From a virus, in the IMG/VR virus record IMGVR_UViG_3300001525_000014, positions 39,620-103,619 of that record: 64,000 nucleotides of DNA; one strand, written 5' to 3'. The notes under the pieces are model-generated. The model was not told where the DNA came from. It saw nothing but the letters and a program-made list of their open reading frames with translations, and made no database searches. Made by a program: the position numbers and the translations under genes. Positions 58,154 to 61,815 of the stretch are shown here, in pieces. The first letter of the stretch is position 1. Each line of letters opens with the position of its first letter.

Positions 58154-58181
58154 AAAAGGGAGCCACCTTTCGGTAGTTCCC
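58154..58181 (-). terminator. Intrinsic terminator after dut
   Basis: The minus-strand RNA reads GGGAACUACC-GAAA-GGUGGCUCCC (10-bp stem, one mismatch) followed by UUUUACUGUUUAU. It lies 24 nt after the dUTPase TGA. Confidence 0.65.
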
Positions 58182-58204
58182 TTTACGCAGGCTTGTCAAG
58201 CTTG

Positions 58205-58750
58205 TCACTCACCTGCCTCAGTACCTTCTTGTACCGCCGCTGGCTCTGGTGCGGACTGTGGCTGTTCGCTAGCCTGTGCCTCAGTTCCCGTAGCTGCGCT
58301 AACTTCCTTATTATCAGTACCTGTTGAACCAAAACCGCTCTCACCTCGTTCTGTCTCTGAGAGCTCAGCTGCCTCGGTAATTGTATACTCTGGTACTGGA
58401 ACAATGACCAACTGACAGAAGCGCTCACCCTGCTTGTATACAGCAGGAACTGTATCAGTTGTAGCCTTCATGAATGCTACGATCTCACCTCTAAAATCGC
58501 TGTCGATAACGCCGACATTGTCAGTAAGCCATAATGACTTTTTCCAAATACTAGAGCGTGGTATAAGTAAACCAACATATCCGGCAGGAATTTCAACTGC
58601 CAATCCTGTATGGTAAACCAACATTAGCTGATTTGCTTCGTTAAGCGCTGTTTCGATCTTAATACAAGTCAAATCAATTCCTGCAGCACCTTTTGTGCCA
58701 CGAATAGGGAGGACAGCGTTGTCCTCAAGTCTCTTAAATTTTAACTCCAT
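58205..58750 (-). CDS. dut: dUTP diphosphatase with an acidic low-complexity C-terminal tail, 181 aa
   Basis: It carries the classic motifs AAGIDL, GVIDSDFRGEI and ERGESGFGSTG. It is an ATG..TGA ORF with no TAG. Confidence 0.9.
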   Translation of the reverse strand: MELKFKRLEDNAVLPIRGTKGAAGIDLTCIKIETALNEANQLMLVYHTGLAVEIPAGYVGLLIPRSSIWKKSLWLTDNVGVIDSDFRGEIVAFMKATTDTVPAVYKQGERFCQLVIVPVPEYTITEAAELSETERGESGFGSTGTDNKEVSAATGTEAQASEQPQSAPEPAAVQEGTEAGE

Positions 58751-58767
58751 AGTATTCTTAATATTGT

Positions 58768-59553
58768 TTAATTCGGTATAAATAATAAAACGTTACTCTT
58801 CCTAGATTTGTTGCAGATTCCATATAAGTAAGACTTGCTAATATTAAAATGCTCTGCAGCTTCTTTGATACTCCCTGTAAATTTATCTCCTTTATAAATA
58901 AACGTTCCACAATATTGCTGTTGAAAACATCCTGTATTTTTGTACTTTAGAACATCTTTTGCTCTAACTTTAACATCTTCTTCAGAGAATCCCAGCACCC
59001 ATTCGTCTTTTATCAAATGGATTTGGTCAAGGCAAGCTTTACTAATTGTGGCTCTATTAATTTTAAGATGCCCTGCAGCATGTTTTACATCAATCCACAT
59101 TTGAATACAGTTTGATTTTATATTATACATATAAATTCGCCGACTTTTCTCCGCAGCTACTTTTGTGGAATTTTTAGACACATGCTCTATTTGTTCTTCG
59201 GTAAATTTGTATCCGAGTATACCACCATCTCCGCCAAGAGTTTGGTTGTAGCCATTTTTTCCGTACGAATTATATTTTTGTATATAATATGCCTCTCTTT
59301 CATCTAACTTCGATTTTAAATCATCAGAAGCCTCTAACACCTCTATGATAGTCACATCGAAATTTTCTAAACCATACTTCTTTATAGCTCTATAAAGTGG
59401 ATTGTCGTATCTATTATTCTTTATATTGCTAAAATGATGTGCTAACCTTTTATTCAAATCAATCGATTGACCTATATAGCATTTATGGTTTATTCGGTTT
59501 TCCCATTTATATATTCCAGGGATTCCTTTGTAATTTCTATATCTTACTACCAT
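58768..59553 (-). CDS. Free-standing GIY-YIG homing endonuclease (I-TevI/Seg-like), 261 aa
   Basis: GIYKWENRINHKCYIGQSIDLNKRLAHHF...NPLYRAIKKYGLENF is a GIY-YIG core. C-terminal HTH-like repeats follow (...INRATISKACL..., ...FNISKSYLYGICN...). It is an ATG..TAA ORF with no TAG. It sits between dut and the tRNA cluster. Confidence 0.85.
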   Translation of the reverse strand: MVVRYRNYKGIPGIYKWENRINHKCYIGQSIDLNKRLAHHFSNIKNNRYDNPLYRAIKKYGLENFDVTIIEVLEASDDLKSKLDEREAYYIQKYNSYGKNGYNQTLGGDGGILGYKFTEEQIEHVSKNSTKVAAEKSRRIYMYNIKSNCIQMWIDVKHAAGHLKINRATISKACLDQIHLIKDEWVLGFSEEDVKVRAKDVLKYKNTGCFQQQYCGTFIYKGDKFTGSIKEAAEHFNISKSYLYGICNKSRKSNVLLFIPN

Positions 59554-59572
59554 ATTTATTATTATTTATTAG

Positions 59573-59644
59573 TCGCCCTAGTAGGAATCAAACCCACTTC
59601 TTCTGTTTTAGAGACAGAGGTAATAGTCAATATACGATAGGGCA
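59573..59644 (-). tRNA. Amber-suppressor tRNA, anticodon CUA (reads UAG)
   Basis: The reverse complement folds as: acceptor UGCCCUA/UAGGGCG; D arm GUA-(loop)-UAC; anticodon stem UCUGU/ACAGA with loop CU-CUA-AA (anticodon at 59609-59611); 4-nt variable region; T arm GUGGG-UUUGAUU-CCUAC; discriminator A. CCA is not encoded. The short variable arm excludes class-II (Leu/Ser/bacterial Tyr) ancestry. Confidence 0.8.
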
Positions 59645-59701
59645 ATATTGTAGAAGCTCACTTTAGGCTATCGAGCTTTTTGTCTGCCTAAAACTACATC
59701 G

Positions 59702-59774
59702 TTGTGGGAGGTGGACTCGAACCACCGACCTTTAGGTTATGAGCCTAACGAGCTACCAGCTGCTCCATCCCACG
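59702..59774 (-). tRNA. Initiator-type tRNA-fMet (anticodon CAU)
   Basis: The sequence is CGUGGGAUGGAGCAGCUGGUAGCUCGUUAGGCUCAUAACCUAAAGGUCGGUGGUUCGAGUCCACCUCCCACAA. It has the C1xA72 mismatch, A11:U24, a D arm nearly identical to E. coli tRNA-fMet as I recall it, variable region AGGUC and discriminator A. Only 2 of the 3 canonical G:C pairs are present in the anticodon stem. Confidence 0.8.
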
Positions 59775-59780
59775 ATAAAC

Positions 59781-59886: not shown

Positions 59887-59935
59887 CCGGCCGCTTGTAC
59901 TATATATGTTTAAATCTTATAACAAAATTAATGTG

Positions 59936-60009
59936 GAGTCTATGCAGGAGTCGAACCTGCTAACTATTCCCTTTATATCGGGTCGTCTTTACCGTTTGAC
60001 TAATAGACT
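59936..60009 (-). tRNA. tRNA-like gene with a non-canonical anticodon arm (possibly a pseudo-tRNA)
   Basis: It has a good acceptor (AGUCUAU/AUAGACU), a D arm with GG in the loop, and T arm GCAGG-UUCGACU-CCUGC. The anticodon region pairs only as CCC/GGG around an 8-nt loop GAUAUAAA, so no anticodon can be assigned by hand. Confidence 0.4.
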
Positions 60010-60024
60010 CTAAAGGCTGGTGAA

Positions 60025-60345
60025 TTACTTCTTACGAGTAACCCAATTCCATAATCTCTTGTACCAAGGCTGCTTTTTCTTAGTAATGACTTCAAACGCA
60101 TTACAATGGATGAGTAAACCATTATCGCAAACTACAGCGTTGTGTTCAGCAAACATCTTGTTGTAAACGTACTGCTTCATTATATCGCATATGCAATCAA
60201 AATCATTCATTGTGAACGGAATGTTTTGCTTGATCTTTGCTTCGATAAATGCGATTCGCGGATGATTAATGTTGAACTCATCTGTAAAATCTACTACCAA
60301 CGCAGGCTTCTTTGTACTCTTTGTTGTTTTAGTAACCTTCTTCAT
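60025..60345 (-). CDS. Hypothetical early protein, 106 aa, TAG-free
   Basis: An intact ATG..TAA ORF in the track. Confidence 0.7.
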   Translation of the reverse strand: MKKVTKTTKSTKKPALVVDFTDEFNINHPRIAFIEAKIKQNIPFTMNDFDCICDIMKQYVYNKMFAEHNAVVCDNGLLIHCNAFEVITKKKQPWYKRLWNWVTRKK

Positions 60346-60368
60346 AATTTAAATGTTTAATTGACTCC

Positions 60369-60752
60369 TTAACCCTGTGCACATTTACAACAGTTTGAAC
60401 AATCTTCACAGCAATCGCTACAAGACTTCTGCTTGAGCGCCCACTCTTCTTTTCGTTTCTGTACAGCGGCGTTATAGTTATTGATTGCATCCTTCCACTC
60501 ATCGGCATTGTTAACGATAACGAAATCCTTTTTATAATCTCGATCGTAGAATGTAATCATAATGTCACCCTTCTTAACATCTACTATTCTGTCTTCAGCT
60601 TCGGCATTTACCTTCTTCCAATTTATAGTAGCATCTTCAGGAATAACGTAGATCTCATCAATTGCTCTTGGACCTCTGTCAAGTGTACTTACCTCAAGTG
60701 TATCGGTGTCGATCATAATTGGAGTACGACCTGTATTAACTATCTTTTTCAT
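60369..60752 (-). CDS. Hypothetical early protein with a Cys-rich C-terminus (CSDCCEDCSNCCKC), 127 aa, TAG-free
   Basis: An intact ATG..TAA ORF in the track. Confidence 0.7.
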   Translation of the reverse strand: MKKIVNTGRTPIMIDTDTLEVSTLDRGPRAIDEIYVIPEDATINWKKVNAEAEDRIVDVKKGDIMITFYDRDYKKDFVIVNNADEWKDAINNYNAAVQKRKEEWALKQKSCSDCCEDCSNCCKCAQG

Positions 60753-60959
60753 ACGGACTGTAATCTTTTGTTTTATTATCTTTAAATCTTCCCTTAAGCT
60801 TAAATCTGAAAAGTTTGTTTATAAGTACATCTCTAGTATCATCTGGATCTTTCATAACATCTACAACAAACTTAAACTAATGCATTACTATCTGCTTTAC
60901 TAGTTCTGGATCTTCATTGAGCTTATGTCCAATCTCTCTACAAACTTTATCAATATTCA

Positions 60960-61388
60960 TCACTTAGTAACTTCTTCAATTGCTACGATGTCGTAAATCT
61001 CTACTAATTGAGAATCCTTGAGCAGATCGAAATATGTAGTTCTAAATGGCTTGTATATCACCACATCACCAACCTTGATAGGCATTTGTTTAATCTTCTC
61101 ATCGTCGTATGGATGAGTATAATTAAACGGAAGCTTAAGAACTACGCCTCTTCTATAATCTGACTCAACTTCTTTAATCTCTTCCTTTACATCATCGTAA
61201 TCAACTGCCTCGATCCCATCCTTATCCTTCTTAGGCTTAACGTCTTTAGCCACAGGTTCGGAGACCTTCTTCTTTACCATCACAGGCTCCAGTGGTTTAA
61301 CGAGGAACTGCTTAACAAAGTCATATTTAATCTTTGCTGACAAATCCTCTGCCAACTGAGTCTGATCAATCATCTTCTCGTCTTCCAT
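60960..61388 (-). CDS. GroES/gp31-like co-chaperonin candidate, 142 aa, TAG-free
   Basis: An intact ATG..TGA ORF. The pattern FLVKPLEPVMVKKK...(insert)...RRGVVLKLP...MPIKVGDVVIYKPF...IYDIVAIEE parallels the Cpn10 beta-barrel signature. This is from memory. Confidence 0.45.
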   Translation of the reverse strand: MEDEKMIDQTQLAEDLSAKIKYDFVKQFLVKPLEPVMVKKKVSEPVAKDVKPKKDKDGIEAVDYDDVKEEIKEVESDYRRGVVLKLPFNYTHPYDDEKIKQMPIKVGDVVIYKPFRTTYFDLLKDSQLVEIYDIVAIEEVTK

Positions 61389-61389
61389 A

Positions 61390-61815
61390 TTATTTCTTCA
61401 ATGACTTAAGGTGCTGGAGTAACTTAATCATGTTACGAAGAACTGTCTCCTTCTCAACCTTCAAACACTGAGGAGTATCGTCCTTAGAGCTCAAAAGGAT
61501 ATTGAGATCTGTATTATACTTGATAAGCAAGTGCTCAATCTCGTCGAAGATGTTTACAAAAGGCTTATCGCTATCTGTGTTTAACATAACCTCTTCAAGA
61601 TAACCGTTCTCAACAAGCATCTTTGCATAGTCTTCAGAAATTGTATAGACTGAATTATATGAGGAAACAACCGTAGAATTTTCTTCGTTTGAGCTATTGT
61701 GCTCTTCGTTATATACACTCTTGTACTCCTTTGTCTTCTCGTTATACTCGAATGTATCGCCAACTTCCATTACAAAGAATGGCTTAATAACCTTTAAAAT
61801 CTTTGTCATATCCAT
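61390..61815 (-). CDS. First gene of the leftward train, hypothetical, 141 aa, TAG-free
   Basis: An intact ATG..TAA ORF. Its stop is 1 nt from the next ATG. Confidence 0.7.
   Translation of the reverse strand: MDMTKILKVIKPFFVMEVGDTFEYNEKTKEYKSVYNEEHNSSNEENSTVVSSYNSVYTISEDYAKMLVENGYLEEVMLNTDSDKPFVNIFDEIEHLLIKYNTDLNILLSSKDDTPQCLKVEKETVLRNMIKLLQHLKSLKK

Follow-up and report, generated by a model that had tools for sequence, protein, structure and literature searches.

Amber-recoded crAss-like phages (genetic code 15), whose genomes comprise low-amber and high-amber domains, are described in several studies (Ivanova 2014; PMC7886860; 10.1101/2021.08.26.457843; PMC9523058), and Yutin et al. 2021 (PMC7886860) found the reassignment to be mostly confined to late genes. 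Proteomic evidence of the recoding in other crAss-like phages is reported by Peters et al. 2022 (PMC9523058). Borges et al. (10.1101/2021.08.26.457843) proposed that recoding regulates late and lysis genes, and described in the Jade phages a standard-coded 'code change module', comprising a suppressor tRNA, a synthetase, and a release factor, situated directly 5' of a recoded lysis cassette. In the 303 genomes of the Mgcod study (10.1101/2022.06.29.495998) the recoded strand has the Sup-CTA tRNA at its 5' end, and this tRNA was inferred to be expressed first; a 2026 preprint repeats all these points for another amber-recoded crAss-like phage. The present analysis concerns a stretch of 64,000 nucleotides (nt) of the IMG/VR virus record IMGVR_UViG_3300001525_000014 (positions 39,620 to 103,619), called here the window, and within it the minus-strand segment 58154–61815, called here the block, which carries a tRNA with the anticodon CUA in front of a long series of TAG-containing genes.

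The block is probably, and we hold this with moderate confidence, the promoter-proximal, amber-poor end of the late strand, arranged according to the published layout in which the suppressor tRNA comes first and acting as a soft code switch. Both this architecture and its interpretation as a timer have already been published for hundreds of genomes, and the window is an ordinary instance of them. An earlier, sequence-only reading of the window had seen in the block a strictly TAG-free leader, fenced from the late genes by a terminator and gating their translation; that interpretation is partly supported and unproven, and it was overstated with respect to the terminator and to the dependence of essentially all structural genes.

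Judged by sequence similarity, the window belongs to a TAG-to-Gln recoded crAss-like gut phage of the Crassvirales, Suoliviridae. The block region is ca. 80% identical in nucleotide sequence to those of Burzaovirus coli cr7_1 and B. faecalis cr124_1 (Crassvirales, Suoliviridae, Oafivirinae), in whose records the equivalent genes are annotated with TAG read through and a 'tRNA-Gln' is called at the position of the CUA tRNA. On the minus strand, from position 58124 down to base 3, long open reading frames (ORFs) follow one another with almost no gaps when TAA and TGA alone count as stops. The 31 minus-strand genes of this downstream part contain 343 in-frame TAG codons among 19,106 (1.8%), and TAG is present in 29 of the 31, for which read-through is therefore needed; in cr7_1 the genes for terL, the portal, and the giant RNA polymerase (RNAP) are likewise interrupted by in-frame TAG. 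When ten large proteins of the window were aligned with those of cr7_1, TAG was matched by another TAG or, among the 205 non-TAG partner residues, by Q in 110, the second commonest partner being K with 13 of 205. TAG does not terminate any gene: all the complete genes of the window, as well as all 77 annotated genes of cr7_1, end with TAA or TGA. On these comparisons TAG is shown to be decoded as Gln in the window phage.

The codons CAA, CAG, and TAG together make up 5.1% of the late-gene codons and ca. 3% of those in the block, in the gene of the major capsid protein (MCP), and in the cr7_1 replication arm, while CAA and CAG alone account for ca. 3% in all these gene sets. Since the latter share is the same everywhere and the total is higher in the late genes, TAG appears to add extra Gln positions and not to substitute for CAA or CAG.

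The window thus resembles the code-15 crAss-like phages in the use of TAG for Gln in structural, packaging, and RNAP genes, in a replication arm compatible with the standard code, in having a phage-encoded tRNA(CUA), and in the absence of TAG as a stop of any gene. It differs from them in that its low-amber domain extends by ca. 3.6 kb over the strand switch and contains two small TAG-bearing genes; nothing essential differs.

The block shows a selective depletion of in-frame TAG, yet it is TAG-poor rather than TAG-free. It had been described as six genes of about 960 codons with no TAG at all, against about 19 expected from a density of roughly 2% elsewhere. The six listed ORFs indeed amount to 958 codons with no TAG, and the measured downstream density of 1.8% gives 17–18 expected codons, but a seventh gene had been overlooked, and to call the block 'strictly TAG-free' is wrong by a single codon for the window (60877–60879) and clearly wrong across the clade. 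When all seven genes are counted, there is 1 TAG in 1032 codons, with 18.5 expected (Poisson P ~2e-7); TAG constitutes 1 of 31 Gln codons in the block and 36% of them elsewhere (P = 3e-5), and every 1028-codon sliding window of the late genes contains at least 4 TAGs. TAG trinucleotides out of frame have frequencies of 2.0–2.2% in the block and 2.1–2.7% in the late genes; this normal off-frame frequency rules out base composition as the cause and indicates that the depletion results from selection at the codon level, in the reading frame. The features of the block and its borders are as follows.

61816–62095, no strand assigned: divergent intergenic region between the two arms, presumed to be the promoter region
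61390–61815, minus strand: block gene 1, DUF7399 protein of 141 amino acids, no TAG (Pfam)
60960–61388, minus strand: block gene 2, protein of 142 amino acids, no TAG; in cr7_1, cr124_1, and cr131_1 the homologue in the syntenic position bears the annotation 'chaperonin'
60736–60960, minus strand: block gene 3, conserved protein of 74 amino acids, 1 TAG (codon 28); the gene overlooked earlier
60369–60752, minus strand: block gene 4, protein of 127 amino acids, no TAG; the cr7_1 and cr124_1 homologues have 1 TAG
60025–60345, minus strand: block gene 5, protein of 106 amino acids, no TAG
59936–60009, minus strand: tRNA-like gene (Rfam tRNA, 38.4 bits)
59775–59935, minus strand: conserved structured spacer with a pseudoknot-like motif at its 3' end (ca. 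59775–59821)
59701–59774, minus strand: tRNA-Met (CAU) with initiator-type features
59572–59644, minus strand: amber suppressor tRNA, anticodon CUA, loop CUCUAAA (ARAGORN, Rfam)
58768–59553, minus strand: free-standing GIY-YIG homing endonuclease of 261 amino acids, no TAG (Pfam, PHROG)
58205–58750, minus strand: dUTPase (dut) of 181 amino acids, no TAG (Pfam, PHROGs)
58154–58215, minus strand: pair of hairpins in tandem where dut ends, the second at 58181–58158 and followed by UUUU at 58157–58154
56664–58124, minus strand: first TAG-bearing late gene, tail-fibre-like, 486 codons, 6 TAG; TAG codon 3 is 58116–58118
62488–62958, plus strand: TAG-dense gene, 8 TAG in 156 codons, the second gene of the opposite arm

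Relatives of the block were retrieved from IMG/VR as 27 Burzaovirus-like loci (L006–L032). Summed over them, TAG makes up 0.57% of the block codons vs 1.8% downstream, a comparison among related genomes and so not one of 27 independent tests. Most of the relatives have 3–5 TAGs in the block, typically three in the 74-amino-acid gene (codons 9, 28, and 30), a single one in the gene that follows, and another shortly before dut ends. Without the GIY-YIG endonuclease the block of the window contains 1 TAG in 771 codons; the endonuclease being a mobile insertion, its 261 TAG-free codons say little about the design of the block.

The single in-frame TAG of the block, at 60877–60879, is codon 28 of the 74-amino-acid gene. 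The ATG of this gene overlaps the upstream stop (TGATG), and at its 3' end 17 nt are shared with the following ORF. It is found in 27 of 27 Burzaovirus-like loci with a strongly conserved protein sequence, and the differences from L006, the closest relative of the window across the block, are almost all synonymous changes in the third position. Both L006 and L028 have CAG as codon 28, and Gln is found there in all 45 database homologues scored at this position; the family has more than 200 database homologues of 74–77 amino acids. By this conservation the ORF is clearly a genuine coding gene, which itself requires the suppressor. An AlphaFold2 model of the family is all-helical (predicted local distance difference test, pLDDT, 71). 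Foldseek returned only non-significant matches, to N-terminal helices of HU/IHF (E > 2), at which level an HU-like identity is not claimed, and the best E value in a profile search of the PDB was ~1.

In Pfam and PHROG scans of all the block proteins only DUF7399, GIY-YIG, and dUTPase were recognized, and no aminoacyl-tRNA synthetase or release factor was found among them; the 74-, 127-, 106-, and 156-amino-acid proteins and the tail gene gave no match in either collection. dut is a nucleotide-metabolism gene and gene 2 is a 'chaperonin' by annotation only, neither being an obvious virion component. The block is similar to the module of Borges et al. as a unit readable in the standard code, with a suppressor tRNA, immediately upstream of recoded genes. 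Nevertheless, it lacks the synthetase and the release factor, and for this reason it is not a strict code change module of that type; moreover, the genes downstream of it are tail-fibre and structural ones, and the recoded codon is TAG and not TGA.

The window covers only the first 2 kb of the plus-strand arm, and the layout of the whole genome was followed in cr7_1. There, the entire replication arm of ca. 30 kb on the plus strand (11.6–41.2 kb) is nearly TAG-free (5 TAG in 7040 codons, one gene excluded), and abundant TAG is confined to the opposite strand, beginning with the tail gene (511 in 20,905 codons of the late genes). By this comparison the block is the edge of a larger, already known low-amber domain reaching across the divergent region onto the late strand, and not an island. 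In the window, tRNA(CUA) is 2.2 kb away from where the strand starts and 1.4 kb 5' of the first TAG-rich gene, and it occupies the boundary of the low- and high-amber domains in 27+7 loci, in Cacepaovirus cr131_1, and in Buchavirus cr52_1, i.e., in three genera of two subfamilies. An association between TAG-poor genes and the tRNA in related genomes, to be looked for according to the sequence-only reading, is thus recurrent as far as the position of the tRNA is concerned, while the terminator fence is not conserved.

The same position of the tRNA, and the same inference that the tRNA precedes the recoded genes, characterize the Mgcod genomes, here with block genes that are dual-coded. Their bimodal layout, with a low-amber early or replication block and a high-amber late block, is also found here. 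The protein genes located 5' of the tRNA on the same strand, the dut terminator, and the TAG-bearing exceptions are not part of the Mgcod paper.

In the soft code switch that we favour, transcription would start in the region 61816–62095 and would give a single transcript over the block, in which no internal terminator is seen. Six of the seven block proteins would be readable under the host's standard code; the tRNAs would be processed from the block transcript, and tRNA(CUA) would be charged by the host glutaminyl-tRNA synthetase. UAG would then be read as Gln, making 29 of the 31 downstream genes translatable, and the terminator after dut would probably attenuate transcription into the tail-fibre genes without blocking it. 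The timing known from two other phages gives this scheme indirect support, by analogy: in phi14:2 the replication arm is early, the leftward arm comprises middle and late genes, and tRNA genes often have promoters of the middle type 5' of them, and in crAss001 the replication arm is middle. If the timer model is true, recoding is a translational clock, with the virion and lysis genes silent until the phage tRNA accumulates, and a form of gene regulation outside transcription; recoding also matters for the annotation of gut phages. The window itself adds no principle. Its value is that of a well-resolved example with a conserved terminator, defined exceptions, and a plastic, endonuclease-invaded tRNA slot.

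The tRNA cluster placed inside the block by the earlier reading was found there, with tRNA(CUA) at 59572–59644 and tRNA-Met at 59701–59774. tRNA(CUA) was called by ARAGORN, scores 46 bits with Rfam, and has an intact cloverleaf. Its stems covary among 13 homologues from different clades, and the loop CUCUAA[A/C] is kept in nearly all the copies of the CUA tRNA, L008 having C at position 33. Because of the covariation and of the preserved loop, the CUA tRNAs of these clades look functional. It is worth mentioning that some CUA tRNAs in the slots of other relatives also have C33 in place of U33. An initial count of 12 relatives devoid of a CUA tRNA was discarded as an artefact of the ARAGORN threshold or of insertions for at least eight of them: a tRNA(CUA) is recognisable in L008, L010, L011, L016, L024, L028, L029, and L032 once insertions are considered. 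Among the 12 relatives rechecked, L007, L012, and L026 show only a 5' tRNA half and an ORF of 300 amino acids.

The hairpin with a U-tract reported at 58154–58181 was confirmed at exactly this position. It consists of GGGAACUACC-GAAA-GGUGGCUCCC followed by UUUU (58181–58154), with 9 of 10 positions paired, and the fold z-score of the 96-nt terminator region is -2.6. Of the 27 relatives, 25 retain the hairpin, which occurs in two variants, GGGAACUACC/GGUGGCUCCC and GGGGAUUACC/GGUAGUUCCC, most differences between which preserve pairing; the former, present in the window and in L006, has one A.C mismatch, and the latter is fully paired. The dut stop is covered by another hairpin, which covaries and is also conserved in the relatives. 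The structure after dut looks like an intrinsic terminator. As a fence of the block it is less convincing, since similar strong hairpins, several of them with U-tracts, are found in most intergenic gaps of the late arm, and Buchavirus has no terminator at the corresponding place. The U-tract is separated from ATG 58124 by ca. 30 nt with no recognisable promoter, and because of this gap the tail gene is probably reached by transcriptional read-through.

That the gene beginning at ATG 58124 has TAG as codon 3 was borne out, the sequence MI*EKDF being conserved wherever this cassette is present. Three unrelated tail-fibre cassettes, beginning with MI*EKDF, MNFKKQPLKG, and MKKRFIKTPL, start right after the dut terminator in L006–L032, and even L006 has a cassette different from that of the window; with three alternative cassettes beginning after it, the terminator also marks a recombination junction. 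A perfect 16-bp palindrome, AATTAATGCATTAATT, opens the cassette of the window and abuts ATG 58124. Its role as an operator was considered and dropped, as there is one exact copy and the number of copies with up to two mismatches corresponds to chance.

Several observations weigh against the soft code switch. The 74-amino-acid gene, located 5' of the tRNA, itself needs suppression. The most TAG-dense gene of the window, 62488–62958, lies in the otherwise TAG-poor and supposedly early plus-strand arm and has 6–8 TAGs in every relative examined, so that conserved exceptions in the low-amber domain are found on both sides of the divergent region. In the late arm two genes have no TAG, namely the MCP gene (41915–43450, minus strand, 511 codons, product 98% identical to the major head protein of cr7_1) and a gene of 376 codons (37692–38822, minus strand). 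It follows that MCP is not gated and that the absence of TAG is no marker of early expression. The claim that essentially all structural, lysis, and packaging genes are conditional on the tRNA could accordingly apply at most to the 29 of 31 genes in need of read-through and does not hold for these two, each of which is followed by a strong hairpin.

A further point is that the codon usage of the block resembles that of highly expressed genes. The avoidance of TAG could be a result of selection for efficient and accurate translation of such genes, suppression being slower and leakier than ordinary decoding, and the position of the tRNA would then be unrelated to it. The bias towards G-ending codons is indeed strongest in the window in the TAG-free late genes, reaching 0.84 in that for MCP and 0.79 in the 376-codon gene, with ca. 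0.4 in the bulk of the late genes; the block genes other than the endonuclease and the 74-amino-acid gene are intermediate (0.62–0.79), and the only block gene that bears a TAG has a low bias (0.41). Nevertheless, late genes of comparable bias (0.58–0.77), e.g., the portal gene, contain 34 TAG in 1617 codons, while the five biased block genes have none in 697, a difference that rules out codon bias as the sole cause of the depletion. Moreover, the cr7_1 replication arm is only moderately biased yet nearly TAG-free, and the low-bias endonuclease is TAG-free as well. We regard this explanation as clearly unlikely.

The promoter presumed in the soft code switch also could not be identified by motif scans of the window. 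A scan for sigma-70-type promoters gave 27 sites vs 36 in shuffled sequence, and the Bacteroidetes -7 motif TAnnTTTG gave 97 scattered matches; no promoter could be placed by either scan within the divergent region, 5' of the tRNA island, or 3' of the terminator. The divergent region does contain blocks conserved among the relatives, e.g., TTTGCAACC...CGTTATGGCAGCGTAAAACAAT just 5' of the first block gene.

Another contrary observation comes from Buchavirus. In the Buchavirus copri cr52_1 clade (L033–L039) a longer TAG-poor leader of 11–12 small genes is followed by tRNA(CUA) and then, at a distance of 14 nt and without an intervening terminator, by the start of terL, which has 12 TAGs; the only strong terminator of cr52_1 lies further upstream, inside the leader. 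This layout suggests that the tRNA is co-transcribed with the late genes. The tRNA could accordingly be the first product of the late transcript in the window phage as well, ensuring a feed-forward supply with no built-in delay, and the TAG-poor genes upstream would be early or middle genes sharing the strand by chance. It is the Buchavirus layout that makes this the most serious rival, though in our judgement an unlikely one. Consistent with it are the lack of a recognisable promoter in the interval from the dut terminator to ATG 58124 in the window, a Bacteroidetes -7-like element, TAATTTTG, just 5' of the RNA island (59923–59930), and the middle and late promoter motifs 5' of tRNA genes in the phi14:2 paper. 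A single match of 8 nt is, however, statistically meaningless with 97 matches in the window. In addition, the conserved terminator separates the tRNA from the TAG-rich genes in the window and in 25 relatives, and dut, whose function is typical of early or middle genes, is located downstream of the tRNA.

The content of the suppressor-tRNA slot varies greatly among close relatives. tRNA(CUA) of the window shares 98.6% identity with the 'tRNA-Gln' of Cacepaovirus cr131_1, and the 5' part of the GIY-YIG gene shows 83% DNA identity to the endonuclease gene located beside the suppressor tRNA of that phage. In cr7_1 and cr124_1 the endonuclease is absent and the CUA tRNA is different; most of the loci also lack the endonuclease, which is present in L006 and cr131_1. 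The protein matches GIY-YIG in Pfam (9e-12), with weak C-terminal matches to NUMOD1 and a helix-turn-helix domain, and homing endonuclease families in PHROG (8e-30). From this distribution and identity, tRNA(CUA) and the endonuclease appear to have moved together as a cassette.

With such a variable slot, and with a tRNA and an endonuclease matching those of another genus, the location of the tRNA might be a mere by-product of a hot spot for the insertion of mobile elements and RNA genes, devoid of regulatory meaning. Despite the insertions, however, tRNA(CUA) keeps its place at this boundary in three genera belonging to two subfamilies, and this is also its regular position in 303 genomes (10.1101/2022.06.29.495998), which makes this explanation very improbable.

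The slot is a hot spot for homing endonucleases. In some relatives a complete CUA tRNA with an odd T-loop is followed by an HNH ORF and a leftover 3' tRNA half, in others there is an insert of 189 nt within the anticodon loop, and in L007, L012, and L026 the ORF of 300 amino acids follows the 5' tRNA half; extra odd tRNAs are also found in the slot of some relatives. The relatives with slot variants are L010, L011, L016, L024, L032, L029, L007, L012, and L026. Free-standing homing endonucleases occur in the tRNA gene regions of phages, SegB of T4 being an example. The GIY-YIG gene of the window is similar to them in adjoining tRNA genes, in its presence/absence polymorphism, and in its apparent co-movement with the adjacent tRNA, and differs from the SegB type in that its partner is an amber suppressor tRNA and its carrier a recoded phage.

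Other RNA elements accompany the suppressor. The tRNA-like gene at 59936–60009 exceeds the Rfam tRNA threshold and is not called by ARAGORN in the window. Its acceptor, D, and T arms are perfect, and its anticodon arm is non-canonical, with a 3-bp CCC/GGG stem and an 8-nt (or 6-nt) loop GAUAYAAA. The gene hardly varies among 26 IMG/VR contigs, in which its conservation exceeds that of the flanking protein genes, and it is restricted to the clade. The spacer of 160 nt that follows contains a covarying long-range stem, GUGGGAG/CUCCCAC vs CCCUGUGUG/CACACAGGG, and ends with the pseudoknot-like motif AAUACUGG-(N)-ACGUAAC-U-CCAG-CUAAAA-GUUACGU, also written CUGG..ACGUAAC.CCAG.CUAAAA.GUUACGU, whose end lies 5–6 nt before a tRNA gene (tRNA-Met in the window). 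The motif is also present in L001, L009, L011, and other loci, and in many relatives it is accompanied by a paralogous copy, whose 7-bp stem is changed to UUAUAAG/CUUAUAA, with compensatory changes at 4 of 7 pairs. Rfam (E <= 1) gave no known family for either the structured spacer or the pseudoknot-like motif. tRNA-Met(CAU) combines a C1xA72 mismatch with an A11:U24 pair, the hallmarks of a bacterial initiator as read from the Rfam alignment, and is 92% identical to the tRNA-Met of cr60_1; the phage may thus encode its own initiator tRNA beside the suppressor.

A more elaborate proposal would unite these elements and regard the block as a dedicated code-switch operon of the Suoliviridae, in which transcription from the divergent promoter and attenuation at the dut terminator would time the readability of UAG, the 74- and 156-amino-acid proteins, whose genes lie on either side of the promoter region and which would be produced only after the switch of the code, would act as suppressor-sensing regulators feeding back on transcription of both arms, and the tRNA-like gene and the pseudoknot-like leader would be further parts; we consider it quite improbable. 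The TAG-bearing genes in the low-amber domain, the tRNA-like gene, the pseudoknot-like leader, and the slot are perhaps worth more as side observations than the layout itself.

The 156-amino-acid family encoded by 62488–62958 has more than 120 homologues on crAss-like contigs of ca. 100 kb. Its AlphaFold2 model is confident (pLDDT 89), and no structural analogue was found in the PDB or BFVD; a single weak Pfam match in 1 of 43 members (E = 0.008) was judged insufficient to assign a SocA/Panacea identity. Between two late genes, at ca. 44723–44741 on the minus strand, there is an intergenic hairpin, CCCGGGUUCGACUCCCGGG, which resembles an isolated tRNA T-arm with a GUUCGAC loop. The dut gene of L007 is interrupted by a group I intron containing an ORF (14090–14331). 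The annotation of cr7_1 includes a transfer-messenger RNA (tmRNA) as well as a reverse transcriptase 3' of the tail gene, and RAGATH-1 hammerhead ribozymes and permuted tmRNA are found in the other arm of the relatives (L007 4294–4375, L010 2648–2727, L029 6060–6122, and L029 550–889).

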